From the NCBI RefSeq assembly GCF_002854065.1, contig NZ_CP024147.1: a stretch of 64,000 bases of DNA; one strand, 5' to 3'. The notes under the pieces were generated by a model that made no database searches, was not told the DNA's origin, and was given only the letters and a program-made list of their open reading frames with translations. Positions 1,862-17,451 of the stretch are shown here, piece by piece. Position numbers and translations under genes: made by a program. The stretch's first letter is position 1. The number at the start of each line of letters is the position of its first letter. This DNA comes from Escherichia coli (GTDB taxonomy: Bacteria > Pseudomonadota > Gammaproteobacteria > Enterobacterales > Enterobacteriaceae).

Positions 1862-4474
1862 ATGATGCTCAGTAGCGAGTTTTTGCGCTTTTTTCAAACC
1901 TTAAACACAACAGAAGTCCCCAGTAATGTCAGGAAAATAGCGAATCTTGTGTGGGATAACCTAGATGATATAACCCCATTGGGCACTTCGCAGGGTCAGC
2001 GAGTCAGGCGCATTGTCTCTCTGGCACAGTCTGCATGGGATGCCCTCAGTACAGAAGTACAGCCACTACCAGAGCAGACCGCTGAACGCGTCTCCACGTT
2101 TAGTCGGCTGAGAAAGATATCTGTTGGACCATTTAGAGGGTTTGCAAAGCAAGAAGAATTTGATCTGGATTCACGTCTAGTGCTGATTTACGGCCCCAAT
2201 GGTACTGGGAAGTCAAGTTTCTGCGAAGCGCTTGAATATACATTACTGGGCAATGTGGCTGAGGCCGAAAGCAAGCGTTTCCGGAATCAAAACGACTATT
2301 TTAAAAATGCACATGTCAATCGGTTTTCTGTTCCAGAGATAATTGGTGTCGGAGATCATGGGCAGGATGTGTCGATTGAGAATAACGAAGCACAGTATCG
2401 CTTTTGCTTTGTTGAAAAAAATCGTATCGACAACTTTTCAAGAATCGCGGCTCTGGTCCCAACAAGGCAGACTGAACTTATCTCAACACTATTCGGGCTA
2501 GATAGTTTTAATGATTTTGTGCGAAATTTTACATCAGATATTGATGCCAGATACATCGATCTAACAGGCGTAAAAGCAGGTCAGTTGGCAGAAAAGCGCA
2601 AGTCTCTTCTGGCTGCACAGCAGCAATTGGCGACAGGTCAGGCTGCCCTGGAAGGGTTGGCATCAGAGGAACAGACACTGGCTTCTGTTTATCGTGAAGG
2701 CCTGTCTTACCAGCAGATGCTAGCTGAGTTAAAAGGGGATGAACAAAATATCGGAACCATCCGACAGCTTGAAACAGAGTTACAAACGCCACTTCCGAAT
2801 CAGAGTAGCCTGACATCTGCTATTTTGAACGATATAAGTAGCGCTGTTGAAACGGCACTTATAGATCTGGAAAGCAAGCAGAAGCAACTGGCAGAGGCAA
2901 GTCAGCAGGTTTCATATAAAAATTTATTTGAAGCAGTTGTCCAGTTACAGGGTACCAGCCCGGAACAATGCCCTGCATGCCATACCCCTCTTCAGCAAAC
3001 CGCCAAAAACCCCTACAGCCATGCCTGTGATGAATTGCTAAAGCTTGAGTTTCTGTCGACATTACAGGGAGAAATAACTCAGCTGGAAAAATTAATTGGC
3101 CAGTTGATGTACAGTGTTTCACAAGTAATCGGCACATGCTGTCAGTTTTTGCCACATGACAATGCTCTTGAAGTATTCCGAAATGAAAATGGCATCACTT
3201 TATGGCGTAATCTGCGGCAGCAAACAGGAGATGGCATAACTCCCTGGGCTCAGCTTGAAAAACAGGTGTGGCATCTGGAGGGAGAAGATAAAAAAATAGA
3301 GGAAGCAACTAAATTGCGAGAATCCCGTCAGCGGGATCTTGCGAGAATGCGTGAATCTGATCGCCAGATAACGATTTTGCAGACAAGAAGAGATACGATA
3401 GAAAAAACCATCTCTGCGGCTCAGTTGTTGATTGGCAACTTTGATACTGAAAACAGGCAGCTAATTGAAGAAGTTGCTCACGAAGAAGACATTGTAAGGA
3501 AAAACAAAGCAATTTCAGAAGCGTATTCCCGGTTCGTTTTACAGCTGAACGCCTATAAAGAGGGATTACCTCAGAGACTTGTAGCGAATCTTGGGGATCA
3601 CATTGTCACTCTCTACAACGCATTTAACCGTAATGACCCCCCGGGAGAAAAGCTAGCAGGTATCAAACTACCTCTGCTGCAGAATCAGCGACTGGAAGTA
3701 GCGTTTCAGAATAATCCAACGCAACTATTCGATGCCCTGCATGTACTTAGTGAGGGGCATGTACGCTGTATAGGGCTGGCTATTTTGTTGGCAAAAAACA
3801 TTAATGAACAGTGTCCACTTTTGATATTTGATGACCCGGTCAATGCTATTGATGACGATCACAGAGAATCGATTCGGAGAACGTTGTTTGAAGATGCTTT
3901 CTTTGCTGAAAAACAAATCATTCTGGCCTGCCATGGAGAGGAATTCTTCAAAGACATCCAGAATTTATTGCCAGCGCCGGTTGCCGCACAGTCCAAGACT
4001 TTCAGCTTCTTACCGCGTCTTGACGAATTGCATATCCGCGTAGATTTTAACTGCGCTCCCAGGAACTATATTATTTCTGCACGAGGGCATTATGAGCGTA
4101 ATGAGATTCGGGAGGCGCTTGCAAAATGCAGACAGTCACTTGAATCGTTGATGAAGGGGAGAGTCTGGCGATATGTAAATAAATATGGTGATGGTAATCT
4201 TAGTCTCAAGCTAAGGTCAGCAACGGCACCTATTGAGTTACGTAACTTGTCGGATCAATTGAAGAAACAGATCAATAAAGCTGAGTTCCGTGACCAAAAT
4301 AAAAACGCCGTATTCACACCAATTGATGTGTTAACTGGGCTAAGTGGAGAATCACGAGAATGGCGCTATCTAAATAAAGGTACGCATGAGGAAGACGGCA
4401 GGGCTGAGTTTGATCGAGCAACAGTAGAAACCATGATTTCTGCCCTTGAGGCGCTCGATCAGGCTGTGAGTTAA
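1862..4474 (+). CDS. Rad50/SbcC-like ABC ATPase with central CxxC zinc hook and C-terminal putative nuclease domain (RloC-like anticodon-nuclease candidate), 870 aa
   Basis: RBS AAGGA at 1852; Walker A GPNGTGKSS (nt 2192-2218); CPAC at nt 2969-2980 at the midpoint between the ATPase halves; signature-like LSEGH, Walker B LLIFDDP (nt ~3818-3838), H-loop ACHGEEF; C-terminal ~200 aa with REWRYLNKGTH (R-x6-H). Confidence 0.55.
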   Translation: MMLSSEFLRFFQTLNTTEVPSNVRKIANLVWDNLDDITPLGTSQGQRVRRIVSLAQSAWDALSTEVQPLPEQTAERVSTFSRLRKISVGPFRGFAKQEEFDLDSRLVLIYGPNGTGKSSFCEALEYTLLGNVAEAESKRFRNQNDYFKNAHVNRFSVPEIIGVGDHGQDVSIENNEAQYRFCFVEKNRIDNFSRIAALVPTRQTELISTLFGLDSFNDFVRNFTSDIDARYIDLTGVKAGQLAEKRKSLLAAQQQLATGQAALEGLASEEQTLASVYREGLSYQQMLAELKGDEQNIGTIRQLETELQTPLPNQSSLTSAILNDISSAVETALIDLESKQKQLAEASQQVSYKNLFEAVVQLQGTSPEQCPACHTPLQQTAKNPYSHACDELLKLEFLSTLQGEITQLEKLIGQLMYSVSQVIGTCCQFLPHDNALEVFRNENGITLWRNLRQQTGDGITPWAQLEKQVWHLEGEDKKIEEATKLRESRQRDLARMRESDRQITILQTRRDTIEKTISAAQLLIGNFDTENRQLIEEVAHEEDIVRKNKAISEAYSRFVLQLNAYKEGLPQRLVANLGDHIVTLYNAFNRNDPPGEKLAGIKLPLLQNQRLEVAFQNNPTQLFDALHVLSEGHVRCIGLAILLAKNINEQCPLLIFDDPVNAIDDDHRESIRRTLFEDAFFAEKQIILACHGEEFFKDIQNLLPAPVAAQSKTFSFLPRLDELHIRVDFNCAPRNYIISARGHYERNEIREALAKCRQSLESLMKGRVWRYVNKYGDGNLSLKLRSATAPIELRNLSDQLKKQINKAEFRDQNKNAVFTPIDVLTGLSGESREWRYLNKGTHEEDGRAEFDRATVETMISALEALDQAVS

Positions 4475-4607: not shown

Positions 4608-5336
4608 TTAATCACTGAATACCAACGAATCTAATACACCTTGTCCACTATGAACTCCTCCTTCAACTGACTCTGCTGATTTGCTACGGATCAAATACCC
4701 AGCAAAACTGTGATCAGCGCTAGATGCATTGTTACCTATCTGGACGGAGAACATTCCTAGTTCGCTGACCAGATCAGTAACCTGATATAACTCCCCTTTA
4801 CGGACAACCAGAGAAGGTGTAGCTCGCGGGACAGGATGTATCCGACGCATGAACGACCAGGATTGATATTGCAGCGGGTCAAGTCTTGCCAGTTTTAACT
4901 GGATATCAGAGCCAAACAGACAATGCCCACCCCCTTCGCCCTGGTTTTTGAGAACCCATGAATCAGAAGGAGACTCTTTTACAATGCTGATTGTATCAGG
5001 GCTAACAGGAAGCATTTCGCCCAACACCATTTTTATGATATCAACCTCTTCCGGCTTCAGTCCAAAAGCAATCAGTTCATCGCACCCCAAATGAGAGAGC
5101 AACATTTGTACTCGCTTACTTGTCGCAAGTTGCTGAGCGACTGTTGCATTCACCGCAACTCGGTGCTGCTCAATCAATACTCGCGTGGCCATTAGCGTCT
5201 GGCAACACTCCTTCTCATTGAGACTGGCGGCTTCATAATCTGAGTATTGATATCCGGCACGTAAGTAAACAGAAGTAGTATGGGTGTATGAACTTGTCAT
5301 TGTTTTGACATTTATCAAATATATTCGATTATGCAT
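4608..5336 (-). CDS. Hypothetical protein (242 aa; alternative start at 5300 gives 230 aa), divergent from arsR; contains vicinal Cys pair (KECCQT)
   Basis: Only long ORF covering this interval; convergent with the ATPase gene; no recognised family; weak RBS at both candidate starts. Confidence 0.45.
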   Translation of the reverse strand: MHNRIYLINVKTMTSSYTHTTSVYLRAGYQYSDYEAASLNEKECCQTLMATRVLIEQHRVAVNATVAQQLATSKRVQMLLSHLGCDELIAFGLKPEEVDIIKMVLGEMLPVSPDTISIVKESPSDSWVLKNQGEGGGHCLFGSDIQLKLARLDPLQYQSWSFMRRIHPVPRATPSLVVRKGELYQVTDLVSELGMFSVQIGNNASSADHSFAGYLIRSKSAESVEGGVHSGQGVLDSLVFSD

Positions 5337-5393: not shown

Positions 5394-5747
5394 ATGATGT
5401 CGCTTACTTCCCTACAACTCTTTAAGAATCTGTCTGATGAAACACGTCTGGGTATTGTTCTCATACTCAGAACTATGGGGGAGTTGTGCGTATGTGATCT
5501 TTGCACTGCACTTGATCAATCACAGCCTAAGATCTCCCGGCATCTGGCTATGTTGCGAGAAAGTGGGATTTTGCTTGATAGTAAACACGGTAAATGGGTT
5601 CATTACCGGTTATCCCCACACATTCCTTCATGGGCTGCACAGATTATTGAGCAGGCCTGGTTAAGCCAACAGGACGATCTTCAGGCCATCGCCCGTAAAC
5701 TGGCTTCAGTCAACTGCACTAACAGCAGTAAGGCTATTTGTATTTAA
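5394..5747 (+). CDS. arsR: Arsenical resistance operon repressor ArsR (R773-type, ELCVCDLC As(III) site)
   Basis: 117 aa; near-identity to recalled R773 ArsR (…LQLFKNLSDETRLGIVL…ELCVCDLC…). Confidence 0.92.
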   Translation: MMSLTSLQLFKNLSDETRLGIVLILRTMGELCVCDLCTALDQSQPKISRHLAMLRESGILLDSKHGKWVHYRLSPHIPSWAAQIIEQAWLSQQDDLQAIARKLASVNCTNSSKAICI

Positions 5748-5793
5748 AAATTTGCCTGAATATATATGATTTCCCACATATGAGGTATTGAGA

Positions 5794-6156
5794 ATGAAAA
5801 CGCTAGCGGTATTCGACCCGGCAATGTGTTGTAGCACCGGTGTCTGCGGTACTGATGTCGATCAGGCTCTGGTTGATTTTTCCGCGGATGTGCAATGGCT
5901 GAAACAACGAGGTGTTCAGGTAGATCGTTTCAATCTGGCACAGCAACCGATGAGCTTTGTCCAGAACGAGAAAGTTAAAGCATTTATTGAGGCTTCTGGT
6001 GCGGAAGGGCTGCCATTACTGTTACTGGATGGCGAAACAGTGATGGCCGGGCGTTATCCGAAACGGGCTGAACTTGCACGGTGGTTTGGAATTCCGCTGG
6101 AGAAAGTAGGATTAGCGCCTTCAGGCTGCTGCGGTGGTAATACTTCTTGTTGTTAA
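5794..6156 (+). CDS. arsD: Arsenic metallochaperone/secondary regulator ArsD
   Basis: MKTLAVFDPAMCCSTGVCG…GCCGGNTSCC; start set at ATG 5794 after RBS TGAGG. Confidence 0.92.
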   Translation: MKTLAVFDPAMCCSTGVCGTDVDQALVDFSADVQWLKQRGVQVDRFNLAQQPMSFVQNEKVKAFIEASGAEGLPLLLLDGETVMAGRYPKRAELARWFGIPLEKVGLAPSGCCGGNTSCC

Positions 6157-6173
6157 GTATGTCAGGAGGACAT

Positions 6174-7925
6174 ATGAAATTCTTACAGAACATCCCCCCT
6201 TATCTGTTTTTTACTGGTAAAGGAGGCGTTGGTAAAACCTCTATTTCCTGCGCCACGGCGATCCGTCTGGCAGAACAGGGTAAACGAGTGCTGCTGGTCA
6301 GTACCGATCCGGCCTCAAACGTAGGCCAGGTCTTTGGCCAGGTTATTGGCAATACTATTCAGCCAATAGCCACTGTTCCTGGATTGTCGGCACTTGAGAT
6401 TGATCCTCAGGCCGCTGCGCAACAGTACCGGGCCAGAATCGTTGACCCTATTAAAGGTGTCCTGCCTGATGACGTCGTTAGCAGCATCAACGAACAACTG
6501 TCTGGTGCATGCACAACAGAGATTGCGGCTTTTGATGAGTTTACCGGATTACTGACAGACGCCTCTTTGCTGACCCAGTTTGACCATATCATCTTTGATA
6601 CCGCGCCAACCGGCCATACTATTCGCCTTCTCCAGTTGCCAGGCGCCTGGAGCAGCTTTATTGACAGCAATCCCGAGGGCGCATCCTGCCTCGGCCCGAT
6701 GGCGGGGCTGGAAAAACAGCGTGAACAGTATGCCCATGCCGTTGAAGCACTGTCCGACCCAGCGCGTACCCGCCTGGTTTTAGTTGCCAGACTGCAAAAA
6801 TCCACCCTGCAAGAAGTCGCCCGAACTCATTTAGAACTCGCCGCAATTGGCCTTAAAAATCAGTACTTGGTCATTAATGGCGTTCTGCCCAAAACTGAAG
6901 CGGCAAACGATACACTGGCTGCGGCTATATGGGACCGTGAACAGGAGGCGCTGGCCAATCTTCCTTCTGACCTTTCCGGTCTGCCAACTGACACGTTATT
7001 CCTCCAACCACTCAATATGGTCGGCGTGGCTGCATTAAGTGGGCTTCTCTCCTCTCAGCCTGAGGCAGCATCATCTTCTGAAGAATACATTCAGCAACGA
7101 CCTGAAATTCCGTCGCTCTCAGCGTTAGTCGATGATATTGCCCGTAACGAACATGGTCTGATAATGCTAATGGGCAAAGGCGGTGTGGGGAAAACCACGA
7201 TGGCGGCAGCCATTGCCGTCAGACTGGCCGAAATGGGATTTGATGTCCATCTGACCACCTCAGATCCAGCAGCACACCTCAGCACAACCCTGAACGGTAG
7301 CCTTAACAATCTGCAGGTCAGTAGAATCGATCCTCACGAGGAAACAGAACGCTATCGTCAGCATGTTCTTGATACCAAGGGTGGAGAACTGGATGAAGCG
7401 GGTAAACGCCTGCTGGAAGAAGATTTACGCTCTCCTTGTACCGAAGAGATTGCGGTCTTCCAGGCCTTTTCACGGGTGATTCGTGAAGCGGGTAAGCGCT
7501 TCGTGGTCATGGATACGGCACCCACCGGGCATACCCTACTGCTGCTGGATGCCACCGGGGCGTATCACCGCGAAATTGCTAAGAAAATGGGCGATAAAGG
7601 CCATTTCACCACGCCAATGATGCAGCTTCAGGACCCGGAGCGAACCAAAGTGTTACTGGTCACGCTGCCGGAAACCACGCCCGTGCTTGAGGCGGCAAAT
7701 TTGCAGGCCGACCTTGAACGCGCAGGGATTCATCCCTGGGGCTGGATTATCAATAACAGCCTTTCCATTGCGGATACCCGTTCGCCGCTGCTTCGTCTGC
7801 GGGCGCAACAGGAACTTCCGCAGATCGAGAGTGTTAAACTCCAGCATGCCAGTCGCGTAGCTCTTGTTCCTGTACTGGCGTCAGAACCGACCGGCATCGA
7901 CAAACTCAAACAACTCGCTGGTTAA
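6174..7925 (+). CDS. arsA: Arsenite-translocating ATPase ArsA (two nucleotide-binding domains)
   Basis: Two GKGGVGKT P-loops and two DTAPTGHT motifs; start at MKFLQN after RBS AGGAGG. Confidence 0.92.
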
Positions 7926-7972
7926 TTATTGTCATTACTCGGGGCAGCTTTGCTGCCCTTTCGGGAGGTTAT

Positions 7973-9262
7973 ATGTTACTGGCAGGAGCCATTTTTATCC
8001 TGACCATCGTGTTGGTTATCTGGCAGCCAAAGGGATTAGGCATTGGCTGGAGCGCCACGCTGGGTGCCGTACTGGCTCTGGCATCGGGTGTGATTCATAT
8101 CGCCGATATTCCGGTGGTGTGGAATATCGTCTGGAACGCCACGGCCACCTTTATTGCCGTCATTATCATCAGTCTGTTGCTGGATGAGTCCGGCTTTTTT
8201 GAATGGGCTGCACTGCACGTTTCCCGCTGGGGCAATGGGCGTGGACGTCTGCTATTTACCTATATTGTTCTGCTCGGCGCGGCGGTGGCGGCATTGTTTG
8301 CCAACGATGGCGCGGCGTTAATTCTGACGCCGATCGTTATCGCCATGCTACTGGCGCTGGGATTCAGTAAAAGCACCACGCTGGCTTTCGTGATGGCCGC
8401 AGGGTTTATTGCCGATACCGCCAGCTTGCCACTTATCGTATCGAACCTGGTCAATATCGTTTCGGCTGATTTCTTCAAACTGGGATTCACGGAGTATGCG
8501 TCAGTTATGGTGCCGGTGGATATTGCCGCCATTGTCGCCACGCTGGTGATGCTGCATCTTTTTTTCCGCAAAGATATCCCGCCCACTTATGAGCTGGCGC
8601 GACTGAAAGAACCCGCAAAAGCCATCAAAGATCCTGCGACGTTCAGAACCGGCTGGGTTGTGCTCCTCCTTCTGCTGGTCGGTTTTTTTGTCCTTGAGCC
8701 GATGGGGATCCCTGTGAGTGCGATTGCGGCAGTGGGGGCGGCAATCCTGTTTGCGGTGGCCAAAAAAGGTCATGGTATTAACACCGGTAAAGTGCTGCGC
8801 GGCGCGCCCTGGCAGATCGTGATCTTCTCACTGGGGATGTATCTGGTGGTATACGGGTTGCGTAACGCCGGTCTGACGGATTATCTCTCTGACGTGCTGA
8901 ACGTACTGGCAGATAAAGGACTGTGGGCCGCGACGCTGGGGACAGGATTCCTGACTGCATTCCTCTCTTCTATCATGAACAATATGCCGACCGTACTGGT
9001 TGGCGCACTGTCGATTGATGGCAGCACCGCGACCGGCGTTATCAAAGAAGCGATGATTTATGCCAACGTCATTGGCTGCGATCTGGGGCCGAAAATCACC
9101 CCTATTGGTAGCCTGGCGACACTGCTCTGGCTGCACGTGCTTTCACAGAAGAATATGACAATCTCGTGGGGATACTACTTCCGCACCGGGATTATCATGA
9201 CCCTGCCTGTGCTGTTTGTAACGCTGGCTGCGCTGGCGCTACGTCTCTCTGTCACTTTGTAA
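7973..9262 (+). CDS. arsB: Arsenite/antimonite efflux permease ArsB
   Basis: 429-aa polytopic membrane protein, C-terminus …[12 protein letters not shown] as in ArsB. Confidence 0.92.
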
Positions 9263-9274
9263 TGAGATTCTGAT

Positions 9275-9700
9275 ATGAGCAACATCACTATTTATCACAA
9301 CCCAGCCTGCGGCACCTCGCGTAATACGCTGGAGATGATCCGCAACAGCGGTACCGAGCCGACCATTATTCTTTACCTTGAGAACCCACCTTCGAGGGAT
9401 GAATTGGTCAAACTCATTGCCGATATGGGTATTTCAGTACGAGCGCTGCTGCGTAAAAACGTTGAGCCTTACGAGCAACTGGGTCTTGCAGAAGATAAAT
9501 TTACTGACGATCAGCTCATCGACTTTATGTTGCAACACCCAATTCTGATTAACCGTCCGATCGTGGTTACGCCGCTGGGAACCAGACTGTGCCGTCCTTC
9601 TGAAGTGGTTCTGGATATCCTGCAGGATGCGCAGAAAGGGGCTTTCGCTAAGGAAGACGGTGAAAAGGTCGTTGATGAAGCAGGAAAACGGCTGAAATAA
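9275..9700 (+). CDS. arsC: Glutaredoxin-dependent arsenate reductase ArsC
   Basis: 141 aa, HNPACGTSRNT catalytic Cys motif. Confidence 0.92.
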   Translation: MSNITIYHNPACGTSRNTLEMIRNSGTEPTIILYLENPPSRDELVKLIADMGISVRALLRKNVEPYEQLGLAEDKFTDDQLIDFMLQHPILINRPIVVTPLGTRLCRPSEVVLDILQDAQKGAFAKEDGEKVVDEAGKRLK

Positions 9701-9702
9701 AT

Positions 9703-9728
9703 AATAAGGGGGCGAATGCCCCCTTATT
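9703..9728. terminator. Hairpin AATAAGGGGGC-GAAT-GCCCCCTTATT between convergent arsC and GNAT gene (bidirectional terminator candidate)
   Basis: GC-rich 8-bp stem with flanking A/T runs. Confidence 0.6.
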
Positions 9729-9734
9729 CGTACC

Positions 9735-10271
9735 TCAGAGCATCATGCCTGAATCCGATGGTAACGTGCTGTTCCCTTCGCCCAGATTTCGTTGCAGCAA
9801 CACTGTGTCAAGCCAACGACCATGCTTGAAGCCAATATTTTTCAGCGTACCAATCTCAGTAAATCCAACCTGCTGATGGACTTTCAGCGAACCTTGATTA
9901 TTGCTATCGCCGACAATAGCAATCATCTGCCGATAGCCGTGAGTTTCTGCCCAGGCAATGACGTAGCGCAGCAACGCTTTTCCTGTCCCCTGACGCTGTG
10001 CGTCCGGGTGAATATAAATCGAATCTTCGAGAGTGTGGCGGTAGGCGTAGCGTTCACGGTAACGAGTGAGATAACAATACCCGATAACCTTTTCTTCCTC
10101 TAACGCGACAACCCACGGTAGCGCCTGATTGCGGATCTTTTTCAGGCGGGTAAGCATCTCGTGGGTATCCGGAGGTTCAGTTTCAAAGCTGGCGGTACCG
10201 TGAAGAACATGATGGGCGTAGATATCGCGTATAGCGGGGATGTGCTTTTCTTCTGCGTTAACGATTTTCAT
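9735..10271 (-). CDS. GNAT acetyltransferase of the phosphinothricin-acetyltransferase family (ArsN1-like arsinothricin N-acetyltransferase candidate)
   Basis: 178 aa; resembles E. coli MnaT/PAT proteins (…IYAHHVLHGTASFETEPP…YIHPDAQRQGTGKALL…); positioned in an ars island. Confidence 0.7.
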   Translation of the reverse strand: MKIVNAEEKHIPAIRDIYAHHVLHGTASFETEPPDTHEMLTRLKKIRNQALPWVVALEEEKVIGYCYLTRYRERYAYRHTLEDSIYIHPDAQRQGTGKALLRYVIAWAETHGYRQMIAIVGDSNNQGSLKVHQQVGFTEIGTLKNIGFKHGRWLDTVLLQRNLGEGNSTLPSDSGMML

Positions 10272-10435
10272 TGTTCTGTTCCCGTTGGCATCTTTTTCAA
10301 GGTTACTTGAAAATCCTGAGGAAAGGTAAATACAAAAGCTTATGACCCAATAAGCAGGCTAATCTTCAATCCCATCTTTTGTTTTCATTCATGCAGGGAG
10401 ACAAATATGTGCTTCCAGTATCCTTATTTTTTATG

Positions 10436-10479
10436 TTACCTTTTCCGTTATGTCTAAAATGACATAACGGAAAAGGTAA
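10436..10479. promoter_or_regulatory. 44-bp perfect palindrome (19-bp arms TTACCTTTTCCGTTATGTC / GACATAACGGAAAAGGTAA, 6-bp spacer) ending 4 nt before the tauE-like start codon
   Basis: Seen directly; right arm contains the putative RBS AAAGG. Confidence 0.5.
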
Positions 10480-10483
10480 ACCC

Positions 10484-11308
10484 ATGTCCTCAGAATCAAA
10501 ACGGAACGGAAAAGGTTTTTTATCAGGCACGTTAATCGGTGCTTTAGGCGGCTTAATTGGCCTCGGTGGCGCTGAGTTCCGCCTTCCCGTCCTGATGGGT
10601 AGTTTCAAAATGCCGACGCTTGAAGCGGTTATTTTTAACAAAGCGATGAGCCTTACTGTTGTCGCTGTTGCTTTGATATTCCGCACAAAATCCATCGCCG
10701 TCGACCAGCTGTTTGCTCATCTTGATATTGTCATCAATTTGCTGGCCGGGAGCCTTATAGGTGCATGGTGGGCAGCAGGAAGAGCCATAAAAATGTCCCG
10801 TATTTGGCTGGACAGAACCATTCTGCTCCTGCTTGTTATCCTGTCATTCGTCATGTTTTCAGAAGCATTGATGCCTCTGCATGATAGCTCCGCTGGATTA
10901 TTCCAGCCCGGAATCGCGACCATTATTGCGGGTGTTATTGCGGGTGTTATTGCGGGTTTCTTCATCGGGAATGTTGCTGCTTTGCTGGGTGTTGCAGGGG
11001 GAGAGCTCCTGATACCAACTATCGTTATCCTTTTTGGGGCTGACATTAAACTGGCTGGCAGTTTGTCACTCATGATCAGTTTACCGACGATGATTGTGGG
11101 GTTCTCTCGCTACACTAATGCAGATGCTTTCCAGATCCTGAGAAAAGAGAAAAAACTTTTTGTGTGGATGGTCATCGGTTCCGTTATAGGTGCCGCTATT
11201 GGGGGCCTTATGCTCGGTATGTTCCCGGTAAGAGTACTTATGACTCTGTTAGGCGCGGTACTTCTTATTTCCGCGATCAAAACCTTTAAGCATACCCGGC
11301 AAAGATAA
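10484..11308 (+). CDS. TauE/SafE (TSUP/DUF81) family anion exporter-like membrane protein
   Basis: 274 aa, two glycine-rich hydrophobic halves (GALGGLIGLGGAEFRLP…; …GVAGGELLIPTIVILFG). Confidence 0.7.
   Translation: MSSESKRNGKGFLSGTLIGALGGLIGLGGAEFRLPVLMGSFKMPTLEAVIFNKAMSLTVVAVALIFRTKSIAVDQLFAHLDIVINLLAGSLIGAWWAAGRAIKMSRIWLDRTILLLLVILSFVMFSEALMPLHDSSAGLFQPGIATIIAGVIAGVIAGFFIGNVAALLGVAGGELLIPTIVILFGADIKLAGSLSLMISLPTMIVGFSRYTNADAFQILRKEKKLFVWMVIGSVIGAAIGGLMLGMFPVRVLMTLLGAVLLISAIKTFKHTRQR
10925..10960 (+). repeat. 12-bp tandem repeat ATTGCGGGTGTT x3 (last copy degenerate) inside the tauE-like gene, encoding (IAGV)2-IAGF
   Basis: Seen directly. Confidence 0.6.
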
Positions 11309-11370
11309 TAGCCGTTTACGCTTTGGACTATTCCGCATTACAGAGAAAATGATTTCGAAAAGGTATCAGA

Positions 11371-11739
11371 ATGAAAAAGAATCCCCTTAAATCAAACTTA
11401 ATCTTAGTCAGACCGAGGATCTATATTAACGACAACATCTCGCTGGGGCCGGGGAAGGTTGACCTTTTAAGGGCGATTGATGGCTTTCACTCTCTTTCTG
11501 CGGCAGCTAAAGATTTGGGGATACCTTATAAAAAAGCATGGCTCTTAATTGACACTTTGAATAAAGGGATTGGTCAGCCAGTTGTAACCACTTCCACTGG
11601 TGGTAACAAGGGCGGTGGTACAGTTCTGACGCCATTGGGGCGTAGCCTGCTGATCTGGTATGACCAGGCCGAGGCCCACCTCAATGAGCAATCTCAGCAA
11701 CAGTTAATCGAACTTGAAAAGATTCTTTTTGGAAAATGA
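11371..11739 (+). CDS. ModE N-terminal-domain-like winged-helix regulator (single domain, no Mop/TOBE domains)
   Basis: 122 aa; …AAKDLGIPYKKAWLLIDTLNKGIGQPVVTTSTGGNKGGGTVLTPLGRSLLIWY resembles ModE N-terminal HTH with the GG(K)GGGG loop. Confidence 0.6.
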   Translation: MKKNPLKSNLILVRPRIYINDNISLGPGKVDLLRAIDGFHSLSAAAKDLGIPYKKAWLLIDTLNKGIGQPVVTTSTGGNKGGGTVLTPLGRSLLIWYDQAEAHLNEQSQQQLIELEKILFGK

Positions 11740-11784
11740 CAGAGACCTTTGTTATCCATCGGGAAAATAGAGTGACAGCAATGC

Positions 11785-11810
11785 ATGAAGGGGGCTAATG
11801 CCCCCTTCAT
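11785..11810. terminator. Hairpin ATGAAGGGGGC-TAAT-GCCCCCTTCAT between convergent modE-like gene and arsA2; 19/20 identical to the hairpin at 9703-9728
   Basis: Seen directly. Confidence 0.6.
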
Positions 11811-11812
11811 TA

Positions 11813-13570
11813 TTACTTCGCCATTTCTTCCAGCAGGTCAATACCAACCGGCTCTTCGCTCTGTAGCGCTGTTAATGCAATACGCTTTGCATACTGCTCT
11901 TCCACATCAGAGATGAGAGGCAGCTCGCGGTTAGCTCTGGTCTTCAGGAAAGGTGAAGACGGCTCAGCAGCTGCCAGGCTGTTATTCACAACCCATGCCC
12001 ACGGCTCAATGCCAGCCCGACGCAGATCCTGCTGCAGGTTAGCGGCTTCCAGTACAGGTGTCGTTTCGGCAAGCGTCACGATAATCACCTTCGTCTTCTC
12101 CGGGTCCTGCAATTGCATCATTGGCGTCATCACATGGTCATGTGTTTGCCCCATCTGGCGCACCATTTCCCGGTGATAGGCTCCAGTCGCATCCAGTAGC
12201 AGAAGTGTGTGACCCGTTGGCGCGGTGTCCATAATGACAAAATGATCGTCTGCCTCTTTGATTATCCGCGAGAATGCCTGGAAGACGGCGATCTCTTCAG
12301 TACATGGTGAGCGGAGATCTTCTTCCAGCACCGCCAGCCCCTCAGCGTCTAATCCTTTGCCCTGATTCTCCAGTACAAAACGGCGATAACGCTCTGTCTC
12401 CACCTTCGGATCGATACGGCTGACCTGCAGATTTGGCAGCGAGCCATCCAGCGTGTAAGACAGATGTGCTGCCGGATCGGACGTGGTCAGATGGACTTTA
12501 TGACCGCGTTTTGCCAGCGATACCGCGACCGATGCTGCAACAGTCGTTTTGCCCACGCCGCCTTTCCCCATCGTCATTACCAGCCCTTTGCCTGTCAGAC
12601 TGAGTTCATCCACTAACGAGGAAAGTTTCGGTAAATCCAGAGCATTTAGCGTTGTATTGGAGAGAGACAGTGGCGCTTTGCTCTCTGTTAATAACTCTCG
12701 CAGGGCTTCCAGACCGACCAGATTAAATGGCTTCAGAGACAGCTGCGAGCGGGGAAGATTAACCAGATTATCAGGCATTGCCTGTAATGCTTTTTCTTCC
12801 CGAGCCAGAATACTTTGCGCCAGTGGATCATTTTCACCGGCAAACGGTGGCAGCACACCATTAATGGCAAGGTGTTGATGCTGCAAACCAATAGCAGAAA
12901 GCTCATCGTGCGTATGAGAAACCTCTTTCAGCGTTGAAGCCTGAGCTCGGGCAACCAGCACTAAGCGTGTGAGAGCTGCGTCGGACAGCGCTTTAACCGC
13001 ATCGGAGTACTGGTGCTGTTGTTTCTCAAGCCCTACCAGAGGTCCAAGGTTTGCAGCGGCATCAGGGTTCGCTTCGAGATAACCGCTCCAGGCTCCCGGC
13101 AATTCAAGCATGCGGATGGTGTGACCGGTTGGCGCGGTATCAAATACGATATGGTCATATTTTCCCCGCAGCTCATGATTGGTCAGCAGACCAGTAAACT
13201 CATCAAACGCAGCGATTTCCGTGGTGCATGAGCCGGAAAGCTGCTCTTCAATGCTGCTGACCACATCGGCTGGCATCAGCCCGCGAACAGGGTCGAGCAC
13301 ACGGTCACGATAGGCTTGCGCTGCAGCCATCGGATCAACTTCCATCGCGGCAAGATTTTCTACAGTACTGATATCTGTGATTCGGTGGCCGATAGTCTGG
13401 CTAAATACCTGGCCGACATTGGAAGCCGGATCGGTACTCACCAGAAGCGTTCTCTTACCCTGATCGGCCAGCCATACTGCAGTAGCACAGGCCAGGGATG
13501 TCTTACCCACTCCACCTTTACCAGTGAAGAAGATGAACGGGGGAATGTCTTTTAAAAATGGCATATTCAT
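11813..13570 (-). CDS. arsA: Second arsenite-stimulated ATPase ArsA (divergent paralogue)
   Basis: Two GKGGVGKT / DTAPTGHT sets; start MNMPFLKD with RBS GAGGAG. Confidence 0.85.
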   Translation of the reverse strand: MNMPFLKDIPPFIFFTGKGGVGKTSLACATAVWLADQGKRTLLVSTDPASNVGQVFSQTIGHRITDISTVENLAAMEVDPMAAAQAYRDRVLDPVRGLMPADVVSSIEEQLSGSCTTEIAAFDEFTGLLTNHELRGKYDHIVFDTAPTGHTIRMLELPGAWSGYLEANPDAAANLGPLVGLEKQQHQYSDAVKALSDAALTRLVLVARAQASTLKEVSHTHDELSAIGLQHQHLAINGVLPPFAGENDPLAQSILAREEKALQAMPDNLVNLPRSQLSLKPFNLVGLEALRELLTESKAPLSLSNTTLNALDLPKLSSLVDELSLTGKGLVMTMGKGGVGKTTVAASVAVSLAKRGHKVHLTTSDPAAHLSYTLDGSLPNLQVSRIDPKVETERYRRFVLENQGKGLDAEGLAVLEEDLRSPCTEEIAVFQAFSRIIKEADDHFVIMDTAPTGHTLLLLDATGAYHREMVRQMGQTHDHVMTPMMQLQDPEKTKVIIVTLAETTPVLEAANLQQDLRRAGIEPWAWVVNNSLAAAEPSSPFLKTRANRELPLISDVEEQYAKRIALTALQSEEPVGIDLLEEMAK

Positions 13571-14028: not shown

Positions 14029-14574
14029 TTAATTCATTTTTTTGTGGCAGCAGACAAAAGATGTGTCATCCGCCTCAATCTGGCAGAGTTCTGTCATCGT
14101 CTCTTTCAGGTGTTTTCTGGCCCGAAGTAGTCGGGATTTAAACGCTGTAAGCGTGATTCCCCATTCATCGGCCAGGGACTGCTGGGGACGCCGGTTAAGG
14201 TCGGACTCTTCAATCAACCACCGCTCATCTTCGGGTAAAGCCTGTAATGTTTCAGGCAGGCAAATATCCAGTGTTGAGATTGCATCAAGGGATGCGTCTG
14301 TTAATAGGGCATCTTCTTCCAGCTCAACAAACGCCCTGGTGGTTCGGTACTCATCAATCAGCAGATTCCTTGCTACCCGATACAACCAGGCTCGCGGATT
14401 TTCCATCTCACAAAAAATGTCTGAATGGGCTCGGGCACGCAGGAAAAGGTCTTGCAGAAGGTCTGCTGCTTTTTCGCTATCGCCTGTCTTCGATATCAGA
14501 AAGCGAGAAAATTCGCCTTCATGCTGCCGCCAGAACACGCTCATACAGCTGTTGAATGCTGTTATGTCACTCAT
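14029..14574 (-). CDS. ECF (sigma-70 family, group IV) sigma factor with C-terminal Cys-containing tail (…ELCQIEADDTSFVCCHKKMN)
   Basis: Region 2 (…NPRAWLYRVARNLLIDEYR) and region 4 (…SLADEWGITLTAFKSRLLRARKHL) motifs; ATG 14574 with RBS GAAGG overlapping arsH stop codon. Confidence 0.75.
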   Translation of the reverse strand: MSDITAFNSCMSVFWRQHEGEFSRFLISKTGDSEKAADLLQDLFLRARAHSDIFCEMENPRAWLYRVARNLLIDEYRTTRAFVELEEDALLTDASLDAISTLDICLPETLQALPEDERWLIEESDLNRRPQQSLADEWGITLTAFKSRLLRARKHLKETMTELCQIEADDTSFVCCHKKMN

Positions 14575-14582
14575 ACTAACCT

Positions 14583-15293
14583 TCAAATTTTGCTCTGATT
14601 AACCCGTCGGGAAAGTTCTTCTGCAGACTCTTTTCGTTCACTGTAGCGATCGACAAGATAGGCAGAATTTGCCCGGGTCAACAATGTAAACTTCATCAAT
14701 TCTTCCATCACATCCACGATGCGGTCGTAATATGGTGACGGTTTCATACGTCCATCGTCATCAAACTCCTGCCAGGCTTTTGCTACCGAGGACTGGTTCG
14801 GAATAGTGATCATTCTCATCCAACGACCAAGCACGCGCATCTGGTTGACTGTGTTGAATGACTGGGAACCTCCACACACTTGCATAACAGCCAGAGTTTT
14901 TCCCTGAGAAGGACGAACAGCACCTTCAGATAATGGTATCCAGTCAATTTGTGCCTTCATAATACCAGTCATCGCTCCGTGTCGTTCCGGAGAGCACCAC
15001 ACCATTCCTTCAGACCAGCGGACCAGTTCACGCAACTCCATAACTTTTGGATGTGACTCCGGTGCATCATCAGGAAGTGGAAGGCCAGATGGATTAAAAA
15101 TGCGGACTTCTGCGCCCATCGCAGTTAACAACCGACCAGCTTCCTCTGTCGCCAGTCGACTGTATGAGCGCTCACGAACTGAGCCATAAAGCATTAGTAT
15201 ACGAGGGGGGTGAGATATTGTCGGTATCCCCATTTTTTGCTCAGTTATTGCAGCATCAAATAAATCAGGAACTATATTATTTAGCTTATTCAT
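14583..15293 (-). CDS. arsH: ArsH, NADPH-dependent FMN reductase (organoarsenical oxidase)
   Basis: 236 aa; …[18 protein letters not shown]… flavodoxin-like motif typical of ArsH. Confidence 0.85.
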
Positions 15294-15798: not shown

Positions 15799-15820
15799 GA
15801 TTTTGTCAAGAGGGTTTAGT

Positions 15821-16954
15821 ATGAATAGTTGGATTTCTATGCTGCAAGATGCCGCAGAGATGTTTTTGTTTTTGGCCGTCGAGCTATCTTTGCTGTTTAT
15901 TGTCATCAGTGCCGGTGTGAGCCTGATAAGGCAAAAGGTCCCGGACCATAAAATCCAGCAATTGTTGGGGGCGAAAAAAGGAAAAGGCTACCTGCTGGCC
16001 TCGTTGTTGGGAGCCGTTACCCCTTTCTGTAGTTGCTCAACAATTCCAATGCTACGAGGGTTGTTGTCGGCGAAAGCAGGGTTTGGTCCGACACTCACTT
16101 TTTTGTTTGTTTCACCGTTGCTTAATCCCATTATCGTGGGGTTAATGTGGGTTACCTTTGGCTGGAAAGTAACTTTGTTGTACGCGATCATCGCTGCCGG
16201 TGTCTCAGTCCTTGCCAGTATCGTATTGGATTTACTAGGATTTGAACGTCATATTGTTGATCACAAAAACTCAGCATCAAGTGGTTGCGCCACCAAATGT
16301 GATGATTCCGAAGCTTCGGTAAAAACGTCGGCGGGTTCCAGTTGTTGCAGCACTAGCTCGACTCAATTGCCTGTAAAAACGAGTTGCTGTACTTCATCAG
16401 CGAACCCCATAATTAACTTAAGGACGGTAAAGAACGAGCAGAACGTATCAACGTGTTGTTCATCAATATCATCTGAACAACCAGCTGTTAGCTGTTGCAG
16501 CAGCGAGAATCTGGGCAATGTGAATCTCACACCGAATACCACCTCTGGCCCAATAAAGTTAGCTATGAAAGATGCCTTACAGCAGTTTAAGGATGTTCTG
16601 CCTTATCTTTTGTTAGGTGTATTAATAGGTTCATTTATTTATGGCTTTATCCCTTCAGAGTGGATTGCAGCTCATGCCGGAGCAGATAATCCCTTAGCCA
16701 TACCGCTGAGTGCAGTTGTTGGTATTCCGTTGTATATACGCGCAGAGGCAGTGATACCACTTGCATCAGTGCTGATGACTAAAGGAATGGGCCTGGGGGC
16801 ATTAATGGCCTTGATAATCGGTAGTGCTGGAGCGAGTTTGACAGAAGTAATACTGCTTAAATCAATGTTCAGAATGCCTATGATAGTCGCTTTTCTGACA
16901 GTTATCTTAGGTATGGCAATTCTAATGGGTTATCTGACTCAATTCTTGTTTTAA
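15821..16954 (+). CDS. arsP: ArsP-type organoarsenical efflux permease with Cys/Ser-rich loop
   Basis: TPFCSCS motif recalled for ArsP; start ATG 15821 after RBS GAGGG; central loop has four CC pairs. Confidence 0.8.
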   Translation: MNSWISMLQDAAEMFLFLAVELSLLFIVISAGVSLIRQKVPDHKIQQLLGAKKGKGYLLASLLGAVTPFCSCSTIPMLRGLLSAKAGFGPTLTFLFVSPLLNPIIVGLMWVTFGWKVTLLYAIIAAGVSVLASIVLDLLGFERHIVDHKNSASSGCATKCDDSEASVKTSAGSSCCSTSSTQLPVKTSCCTSSANPIINLRTVKNEQNVSTCCSSISSEQPAVSCCSSENLGNVNLTPNTTSGPIKLAMKDALQQFKDVLPYLLLGVLIGSFIYGFIPSEWIAAHAGADNPLAIPLSAVVGIPLYIRAEAVIPLASVLMTKGMGLGALMALIIGSAGASLTEVILLKSMFRMPMIVAFLTVILGMAILMGYLTQFLF

Positions 16955-16997: not shown

Positions 16998-17451
16998 CAG
17001 TTTCACTAGCAGATTGCCAGTTCTAGTAGCCAATTAAGAGAGGAGTGGATTGTTCTTTGGGTATTCGCAAACCCAGCAACGGTAAAATCAGGACTGACCC
17101 AAAAATTCAACGAGAATCCACCCCTTTAAATCTTTGATCCCTTCCCGGAAGCAGTATACGGCATATCTGAGTTAATCGTTTCTATTGGAGCTTCAGGGAA
17201 GCGACTCTTAATAGAAATCTGTTAATACTGTCCAAAACTGATTCCCTTTATCCCGAGCTGAACCGTAACAAAACCATCTCTCTTTGAGATCTCACATACT
17301 CAACGAACATAAGCCATTGCTGCTACATACAATTTTACGAAGCATATCACCTTAGTTGATCATGAAATCCATCCTGAATACAGATTGATTTTTATACTAT
17401 ATTAAGTGAGATATGATCTTCTTTAGAGTTGAGCTAAAAGGAGTCGAGGCG

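Follow-up and report, generated by a model that had tools for sequence, protein, structure and literature searches.

An arsenic (ars) island acquired by Escherichia coli sits between gorA and dinQ in the 64,000-nt stretch of chromosome analyzed here (the window; contig NZ_CP024147.1 of assembly GCF_002854065.1). Two ars gene clusters of this island converge on a 2.06-kb segment that carries three genes and is bracketed by two nearly identical hairpins, H1 and H2. Comparison with related islands makes it probable that the two hairpins are duplicate copies of one terminator that the converging clusters otherwise share, placed around a slot for variable cargo, and not chance matches to a generic consensus. 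The three genes encode a GNAT N-acetyltransferase (minus strand), a TauE/TSUP permease (plus strand) and a short ModE-type winged helix-turn-helix (wHTH) regulator (plus strand). Judged by its alleles in relatives, the segment is a slot with at least two independent units, the GNAT gene and the TauE-wHTH pair, and not a single module.

The hairpin pair and the empty junction

A sequence-only reading of the window had reported two hairpins at 9703-9728 and 11785-11810 that differ by one loop base and flank exactly the DNA between the two ars clusters. A sequence search bore out the pair, and the stop codons of arsC and arsA2 bore out their placement. The core of H1 is AAGGGGGC-GAAT-GCCCCCTT (9706-9725), and the core of H2 is AAGGGGGC-TAAT-GCCCCCTT (11788-11807). 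The core motif has two matches in the 64 kb even with two mismatches allowed, and 0.00 matches were expected from 100 shuffles. With the outer pairs included, each hairpin forms a perfect 11-bp stem with a 4-nt loop and 6-7 GC pairs; the outer stems are unlike (AATAA/TTATT in H1 vs ATGAA/TTCAT in H2). Folding of both strands in 56-nt windows gave -21.9 to -29.0 kcal/mol for H1 and H2, with z values of -3.6 to -5.8. Two nucleotides separate the arsC stop codon (9698-9700) from H1, and the GNAT stop codon lies 6 nt from H1. H2 ends 2 nt before the arsA2 stop codon (11813-11815, minus strand), and the wHTH stop codon lies 45 nt upstream of H2.

What does this junction look like in other islands? 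The sequence-only reading had proposed a search of other ars islands for the hairpin and for the presence or absence of the bracketed genes. An ArsA2 scan with one genome per species yielded 80 loci, which were mapped with the island proteins, and an empty state with one hairpin turned out to be common among relatives. In nine Enterobacterales species (loci L137-L141, L143 and L145-L147), 33-50 nt separate the stop codons of arsC and arsA2, and this gap contains one hairpin, ATGAAGGGGGC-N4-GCCCCCTTCAT. Species with an empty junction are found in Enterobacter, Citrobacter (at least three species) and Photorhabdus, and also include Hafnia paralvei and Cedecea davisae. As a contiguous stretch, the empty junction occurs in 394 plasmid records and 43 E. 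coli genomes, and the matches listed for it are single uninterrupted alignments throughout. The corresponding numbers for the occupied 3.1 kb are 22 and 11.

The evidence that carries the duplication comes from the flanks. H1 is colinear with the one hairpin of L146, an empty allele: both have CTGAAATAA..hairpin..TTATTC. Likewise, H2 is colinear with the empty alleles L140, L143 and L217, with hairpin..TATTACTTCGCCATTTCTTCC in common. Each copy thus keeps one flank of the single hairpin, which indicates that H1 and H2 are two copies of an otherwise shared terminator. L217, an IncF plasmid with an empty junction, has flanks 97.5% and 95.4% identical to those of plasmid R64, which holds the full cargo, and the loop of its single hairpin is GAAT, the same as that of H1. 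Copies outside the slot were not found in 435 kb of Enterobacterales loci (the 64-kb window included), even with the relaxed motif GGGGC-N3-6-GCCCC, and the strict motif had no match in 1.06 Mb of other ars loci.

It appears that the hairpins function as terminators. H1 and H2 are the two best-ranked matches of a terminator scan of the window, and each is a stable GC-rich stem-loop just past a stop codon, as is typical of intrinsic terminators. In empty alleles, the single hairpin (AAATAAAAATGAAGGGGGC-N4-GCCCCCTTCAT) lies between the converging arsC and arsA2 stop codons with an A-tract on one side and a T-tract on the other. In the window, convergent genes flank each copy, namely arsC and GNAT at H1, and wHTH and arsA2 at H2. 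A U-rich tail follows H1 on the minus strand only (TTATTATTTATTT; the GNAT side) and H2 on the plus strand only (TTCATTATTACTT; the wHTH side). The strand of these tails points to a canonical terminator role of H1 for GNAT and of H2 for TauE-wHTH. Both copies probably terminate transcription on the cargo strands, and they may do so on the ars strands.

The pattern of substitutions places the hairpin stem under selection for pairing. Among 15 distinct slot hairpins compared over 11 stem pairs, 92.7% of the stem cells are paired, and shifted registers are 44-71% paired. Compensatory changes were found in three of the 11 pairs, one of which is GC in 8, UA in 4 and CG in 1, and none of 500 shuffles reached the covariation score. 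Furthermore, the stem of H2 in L124 (Hafnia alvei) is conserved though its flanks are only ~80% identical, and the loops vary among alleles.

Evidence for folding at the DNA level comes from a loop inversion. Enterobacter sp. Bisph1 (L137, loop at 4045-4048) and Hafnia paralvei (L138, loop at 10775-10778) share 4,004 nt that are identical except for two central loop bases, and the two loops, AAAT and ATTT, are reverse complements. A reverse-complemented loop is what a hairpin-mediated flip leaves behind, and it indicates in vivo folding of the DNA. Rearrangements have also ended at the hairpins. In E. coli GDSC2227PM (L125, 8375-8390), homology stops after AAGGGGGCTA in the H2 loop, which is fused with 1 nt of microhomology to ymfQ of an e14-type prophage, and nothing of the second ars cluster is left. 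In plasmid CP029743 (L227, 2990-3010), IS26 ends directly at the 3' arm of H1.

Cargo exchange and competing explanations

The three genes had been described as a module that was inserted or exchanged by recombination. DNA has indeed been gained, lost or exchanged at this site; the segment is not one module, because GNAT and TauE-wHTH occur separately. GNAT is absent from L003, L142 and L124, and it is present without TauE-wHTH in L002 and L144. L144 keeps a scar of the deleted TauE-wHTH pair (Table 1), which shows that cargo loss does happen. The boundary between the two units lies near 10365: homology of the TauE-only alleles starts near 10370, and ISKpn26 is inserted at ~10362 in L126. Other cargo occurs as well: L124 has a tyrosine-phosphatase gene, and Cedecea neteri (L148), which is more distant, has crcB with a fluoride riboswitch. 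A different hairpin, ACGGACTCAGG..CCTGAGTCCGT, closes the slot of L148; in L191, the empty allele of Cedecea davisae, it occurs as the only hairpin. The sequence-only reading had raised the case of a module present without hairpins in relatives; the units were never found without bracketing hairpins, some of which are of other sequence.

The flanks of the slot have different histories. Neighbor-joining trees were built for each flank (arsBC; arsA2D2). By arsBC, the nearest relatives of the window are L145/L146 (91-92%). By arsA2D2, L145/L146 are the most distant (84-85%), and L003/L141/L137 come nearest (92-93%). On both trees, the occupancy states are scattered. The incongruent trees together with the scattered occupancy indicate that the junction has repeatedly recombined and that cargo has been repeatedly gained or lost. 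The same alleles are present on unrelated backbones (IncI1, IncF, IncC and IncHI2) and on chromosomes. The cargo does not differ from the flanks in GC content or in GC content at third codon positions, which therefore give no information on a foreign origin. No description of the slot was found in the searchable literature, which is incomplete, including the arsenic-island surveys PMC4435449 and PMC3834237.

How could a duplicated terminator come to enclose cargo? In most relatives, one GC-rich hairpin in a gap of ~33 nt would be the shared intrinsic terminator of the convergent arsC and arsA2. In the window, the gap holds 2.06 kb of cargo, in which a GNAT unit would end at H1 and a TauE-wHTH unit, under the control of a putative ModE box, would end at H2. 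Each hairpin copy would now close one ars operon and one cargo unit. As folding direct repeats of 20-26 nt, the copies are likely substrates for precise cargo loss and possibly for gain, and ordinary homologous recombination in the flanking ars genes would then spread the cargo states. The sequences themselves show the homology of the hairpins, the empty and occupied alleles, the mosaic flanks, the covariation of the stem and the conservation of the operator; the termination activity, a causal role of the hairpins in recombination, the order of events and the substrates of GNAT and TauE are inferred. Insertion of cargo into an empty junction is favored because empty alleles are far commoner and more diverse.

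Several observations weigh against this explanation. At least 120 unrelated phage contigs also carry the 8-bp stem AAGGGGGC-N4-GCCCCCTT. Among the matches listed there, it mostly has an A-tract before it, a T-tract after it and UUCG-type loops, with one TAAT loop, so that convergence is possible in principle. The bracketing hairpins differ within some occupied alleles (L002, L003/L142 and L144), which means either that duplication is not the sole origin of the junction hairpins or that they diverge fast. TauE-only alleles have their left boundary in the 3' end of arsC and not at a hairpin. Neither the arsC side of H1 (plus strand) nor the arsA2 side of H2 (minus strand) has a U-tract, which makes termination of arsC and arsA2 transcripts there uncertain; the sequence bears out only half of the earlier description of both hairpins as likely bidirectional terminators, as each has a U-tail on one strand. 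Two of the five truncated alleles examined end in a hairpin, and the small sample, in which the pattern was seen post hoc, leaves an endpoint hotspot at the hairpins suggestive only. Finally, the same data fit a deletion between H1 and H2 that gives rise to the empty alleles.

Such a deletion is the strongest alternative, and it is a possible one though on balance doubtful. It takes the occupied form as ancestral, with a terminator of its own on each side, and derives the empty alleles from deletions, perhaps repeated ones, between H1 and H2 that were slipped-strand or RecA-mediated. Deletion between the cores yields the exact empty structure, and three E. coli plasmids align without a break with the simulated product, at 95.4%. 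In the single hairpin of L217, the loop is that of H1 (GAAT), and the outer stem and right flank are those of H2. The scar in L144 and the scatter of occupancy states on the flank trees agree with this alternative, and TauE and short-ModE genes are convergent with arsD-arsA in Undibacterium too. However, the empty alleles are ~18-fold more frequent, with very diverse backbones and diverse loops. Furthermore, the left outer stem of L217 is ATGAA and not the AATAA of H1, so L217 is no simple chimera of H1 and H2, and the near-identity of two originally separate terminators would be left to explain. The outer stems and loops of L217, L146, H1 and H2 call for a few additional changes under insertion and deletion alike.

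A bolder proposal, which is unlikely, takes the hairpin as a recombinase-independent docking site from which an integron-like array grew out of a terminator and, independently, takes TauE with the short ModE as an oxyanion transporter in arsenic tolerance. The hairpin DNA would fold, break or provoke template switching, and a copy would be regenerated at each new junction. GNAT, TauE-short ModE, the phosphatase gene and the riboswitch-crcB unit would in this way accumulate as hairpin-delimited cassettes.

It is very unlikely that H1 and H2 are unrelated terminators that converged on a generic GC-rich stem. The phage stems and the junction hairpins of other sequence in some relatives speak for such convergence. 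It conflicts with the absence of strict or relaxed copies elsewhere in the 435 kb of the same genomes, with the stem conserved in L124 H2 while loops vary, and with the full flank that each copy has in common with the single hairpin of empty alleles; this colinearity largely refutes it. The generic terminator consensus, genome-wide, that the sequence-only reading had named is true of the stem in phage contigs and fails in the local 435 kb, and as an explanation it was rejected because of that absence and the shared flanks.

A site for a dedicated enzyme, attC-like for an integron-type integrase or specific for a hairpin-recognizing transposase, with the slot as a cassette array, is highly improbable. 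The threefold gene-hairpin layout in Hafnia alvei resembles such an array, the cargo units have been exchanged independently, and the loop flip shows DNA folding. Nevertheless, no recombinase or transposase open reading frame (ORF) lies in or next to the cargo, and the tyrosine recombinase 5.6 kb away (17413-18756) scores 21-22 bits against Xer and integron-integrase cutoffs of 220-335. The stems are perfect, with neither extrahelical bases nor a GTTRRRY core, and the variety of backbones and the TauE-only boundary within arsC also argue against such an enzyme. Lastly, a small mobile palindrome, similar to a repetitive extragenic palindromic (REP) element or a miniature inverted-repeat transposable element (MITE), that inserted twice nearby would be short, perfect, GC-rich and present in two or three copies within a few kb as the hairpins are, but it deserves hardly any credence, as the hairpin is absent elsewhere in the 435 kb, has no Rfam or REP-type match, sits at gene ends of one slot only and shows no terminal repeats of its own or target duplications.

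The TauE-short ModE unit and the GNAT gene

The sequence-only reading had called a TauE exporter and a single-domain ModE-like regulator, and both calls are correct in kind. TauE matches PF01925 twice, at residues 12-213 (5.7e-15) and 155-270 (9.2e-12). The wHTH protein matches PF00126 and also the ModE repressor domain TIGR00637 (E = 4.9e-22), the latter with 77.9 bits, which is below the cutoff of 98.5. Its best match in the PDB is 2ijl, a 135-aa 'molybdenum-binding transcriptional repressor', and it aligns with residues 16-95 of E. coli ModE (1b9m). A Mop/TOBE domain was not found in the 122 aa; the helix-turn-helix domain is the sole match, and the protein has no cysteine. With this domain alone, it is a single-domain ModE-like protein and not a ModE. 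Its gene differs from the Hafnia gene by 46 synonymous and 18 non-synonymous codon changes.

The TauE gene contains three tandem copies of the 12-nt unit TTATTGCGGGTG (10923-10958), which encodes IAGV/AGVI. R64, L003, L124, L125 and L142 have two copies, and their gene is 813 nt long vs 825 nt in the window. The window strain thus has an in-frame duplication of four residues in a predicted membrane helix of TauE.

An inverted repeat upstream of TauE is the predicted operator of the wHTH repressor (10436-10479). Its core, CGTTATGTC-N6-GACATAACG at 10446-10469, is a box of the ModE type; the consensus for E. coli ModE is ATCGNTATATA-N6-TATATANCGAT (PMC545781). The wider tCCGTTATgTc-N6-gAcATAACGGa (10444-10471) has the N6 spacing of a ModE box and agrees with it at 7 of 10 specified positions per half-site. 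The box lies upstream of transporter genes in six lineages: the Citrobacter, Hafnia and Atlantibacter alleles, Proteus hauseri, Shewanella (in a Tn3-family transposon) and Azoarcus. A strict regular expression found nothing in the distant loci, a relaxed inverted-repeat search found the Shewanella and Azoarcus boxes, and the Proteus box was found by eye. No box was found in the Undibacterium or Aeromonas loci.

Could the palindrome act as RNA? It would fold with -33 kcal/mol if transcribed, and the alleles compared (window, L003 and L124) differ by compensatory changes in its outer arms. An RNA hairpin or riboregulator is the less favored explanation; a protein operator is preferred because the ModE-box core is conserved in distant lineages without the long arms. 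The palindrome may have a structural role, as RNA or DNA, besides that of an operator. An Rfam scan of 9000-12500 at E<=1 returned only a spurious microRNA match on the palindrome. A third exact copy of the 12-nt arm AACGGAAAAGGT is present at 10505-10516, 39 nt downstream and inside the TauE coding sequence.

A search for homologs of the wHTH protein gave 286 matches. In nine contexts that were examined, TauE is present in seven, a ModA-type binding protein in six, ModB and ModC in five, and adjoining ars genes in four. The proteins that were scored, ModA of three loci and ModB and ModC of Undibacterium, pass NCBIfam equivalog cutoffs. TauE of the window is 58% identical to a TauE that is located between modA and modB in Undibacterium, and it is orthologous to the TauE proteins of modA-TauE-modBC operons. 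In beta- and gammaproteobacteria, the TauE-short ModE pair recurs, usually inside modABC operons and often beside ars genes. Either modA-TauE-modBC with a short ModE, or TauE with a short ModE only, adjoins ars operons in Undibacterium, Rhodoferax (on an integrative and conjugative element), Azoarcus and Proteus. These arrangements suggest a repeated, possibly functional association of molybdate-type transport genes with arsenic clusters. The pair had been thought an unusual combination, a view that does not hold for a recurring pair with a conserved operator and homologs in modABC operons. By its gene neighborhoods and its predicted operator, TauE with the short ModE forms a conserved unit under operator control that descends from operons for molybdate-type transport. 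No description of TauE-ModE in ars islands was found in the incomplete searchable literature, the two surveys cited above included.

The GNAT protein is a member of the PAT family by its full-length likeness to solved phosphinothricin N-acetyltransferases. Its best PDB match is the phosphinothricin N-acetyltransferase 9igl (182 bits, E = 8e-53, residues 5-175), followed by 5dwm (E = 2.5e-45) and ArsN1 5jtf (81 bits). Against NCBIfam models, it scores 145.4 bits for ArsN1b (cutoff 210), 101.4 for ArsN1a (cutoff 170) and 104.7 for PAT (cutoff 300). The earlier call of an ArsN-like PAT-family enzyme is therefore right in kind; membership in ArsN is not established by scores below all three equivalog cutoffs. 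A PAT-family GNAT inside an ars cluster has a parallel in phoN1/arsN1 of Pseudomonas putida (PMC6465285, PMC11637737), but the GNAT of the window is nearer to the PAT structures 9igl and 5dwm than to PpArsN1 (5jtf). A GNAT gene beside the wHTH gene in Undibacterium was considered as an ortholog and dropped at 24% identity.

Known systems and the surrounding island

The closest known thing is the bidirectional intrinsic terminator between convergent operons, as described for convergent E. coli genes (bioRxiv 10.1101/2022.10.23.513370), and the new twist is its duplication around a variable cargo slot. The slot hairpins share with these terminators a perfect GC-rich stem and a 4-nt loop between converging stop codons. 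The hairpin of empty alleles, which has an A-rich tract towards arsC and a T-rich tract on its opposite side, would likewise serve both operons. Unlike them, the window has two copies with cargo between, and each copy has a U-tract on one strand. The TauE-wHTH unit is also related to the ModE/modABC molybdate regulon of E. coli and to single-domain ModE proteins (PDB 2ijl; PMC545781) through the ModE-type DNA-binding domain, the spacing and most positions of the box, and wHTH homologs that head operons whose ModA, ModB and ModC pass equivalog cutoffs. In contrast to that system, the wHTH protein lacks Mop/TOBE, and the Enterobacterales islands lack modABC and have TauE alone under the predicted operator.

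Integron cassettes with attC sites resemble the slot in that promoter-poor units, each followed by an imperfectly conserved inverted repeat, are present or absent independently. However, the slot has no IntI, attI, R/L boxes or extrahelical bases, and its hairpin is only 26 nt long. REP elements, bacterial interspersed mosaic elements (BIMEs) and MITEs differ from the slot hairpin, which has no dispersed copies in the 435 kb and no Rfam match. Deletion and duplication occur between short direct repeats, and palindromes stimulate illegitimate recombination through slipped mispairing, template switching and SbcCD cleavage of hairpin loops. The slot resembles such cases in the 20-26-nt direct repeats that flank its cargo, in the precise one-copy product that exists in relatives, and in one loop inversion and two rearrangement endpoints inside slot hairpins. 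It differs in the distance of 2.08 kb between H1 and H2, which is far for slippage, and in the homologous recombination in ars genes that also moves cargo.

The two-operon ars island is present on hundreds of clinical and environmental Enterobacterales plasmids (R64; IncF, IncC and IncHI2) and on chromosomes. A 26-nt terminator hairpin that marks a site of gene gain, loss and swap could be a simple typing marker for these islands, and it offers a concrete case in which to test whether a terminator can be a structural hot spot of gene flux when no dedicated recombinase takes part. In addition, the 'hypothetical' genes ycfA and ycfB of R64 can be re-labelled as an operator-controlled TauE-short ModE unit. 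Their relatives in molybdate transport operons by ars genes suggest that arsenic islands are linked to oxyanion transport of the molybdate type, a connection yet to be explored.

The features of the island, slot alleles of relatives and short-ModE loci are collected in Table 1. Over the occupied 3.1 kb, R64 (an IncI1 plasmid) and plasmids of Citrobacter, Salmonella and E. coli are ~97% identical to the window.

Table 1. Features of the window and of related loci (L numbers); positions refer to the window except in rows for L loci.
Feature	Position	Strand	Description
arsRDABC operon	5394-9700	plus	left of H1
arsC	9275-9700	plus	last gene of arsRDABC; annotation; NCBIfam NF007456, 303 bits vs cutoff 242
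H1	9703-9728		11-bp stem, loop GAAT; probable copy of the shared arsC/arsA2 terminator with the arsC-side flank
GNAT gene	9735-10271	minus	PAT-family GNAT N-acetyltransferase (yceA in R64); cargo unit 1, ends at H1
GNAT/TauE intergenic region	10272-10483		AT-rich, 36% GC, between divergent genes
Inverted repeat	10436-10479		predicted operator; perfect 19-nt arms, 6-nt spacer; overlaps TauE ribosome-binding site
TauE gene	10484-11308	plus	TauE/TSUP permease (ycfA in R64), Pfam PF01925; cargo unit 2, gene 1
wHTH gene	11371-11739	plus	single-domain ModE-N-type winged-helix regulator (ycfB in R64), 122 aa; cargo unit 2, gene 2
H2	11785-11810		11-bp stem, loop TAAT; probable copy of the shared terminator with the arsA2-side flank
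arsA2	11813-13570	minus	last gene of second cluster; annotation; TIGR04291, 944 bits
arsR2-arsH-ECF sigma-arsD2-arsA2	15715-11813	minus	second cluster, right of H2
ArsP_1 permease gene	15803-16954	divergent from second cluster	PF03773
L002			GNAT only; one bracketing hairpin differs (ATGGGGC-CGTA-GCCCCAT)
L144			GNAT and scar, with ~30 bp upstream and ~50 bp downstream of deleted TauE-wHTH kept; G-to-A stem variant
L003, L142, L125			TauE-wHTH only; variant arsC 3' end; left hairpin GAAAGGGC..GCCCTTTC
L124 (Hafnia alvei)			tyrosine-phosphatase gene and TauE-wHTH; three family hairpins, one after each plus-strand unit
L148 (Cedecea neteri, more distant)	2872-3512		fluoride riboswitch RF01734 (48.7 bits, Rfam) and crcB
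Ars-adjacent short-ModE loci	L133 7522-11862; L221 865-12607; L131 3638-9582; L224 7044-12734		varied arrangements

Several other genes of the island were observed. An extracytoplasmic function (ECF)-type sigma gene lies between arsH and arsD2 in the second ars operon (14029-14586). It is SigZ-like (132 bits vs a cutoff of 169) and is kept in all two-cluster relatives; no anti-sigma gene was noticed for it. Divergent from arsR is a 242-aa ORF (4608-5336) annotated as 'glutathione synthetase', which matches only the C-terminal half of the eukaryote-type glutathione synthase (TIGR01986 263-471) with 103 bits vs a cutoff of 330. The native chromosomal ars locus beside dinQ (23787-25600; L225 7075-8773) has arsC alone left, with arsR and arsB missing and an IS1 overlapping the 3' end of arsC; the acquired island is ~7 kb away. 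At the left edge of the island, beside IS2, a small helix-turn-helix gene precedes a gene for an 870-aa SMC/RecF-like AAA ATPase (1862-4474). This protein matches Rad50-like and PtuA-like ATPases weakly, and its gene may serve in defense.

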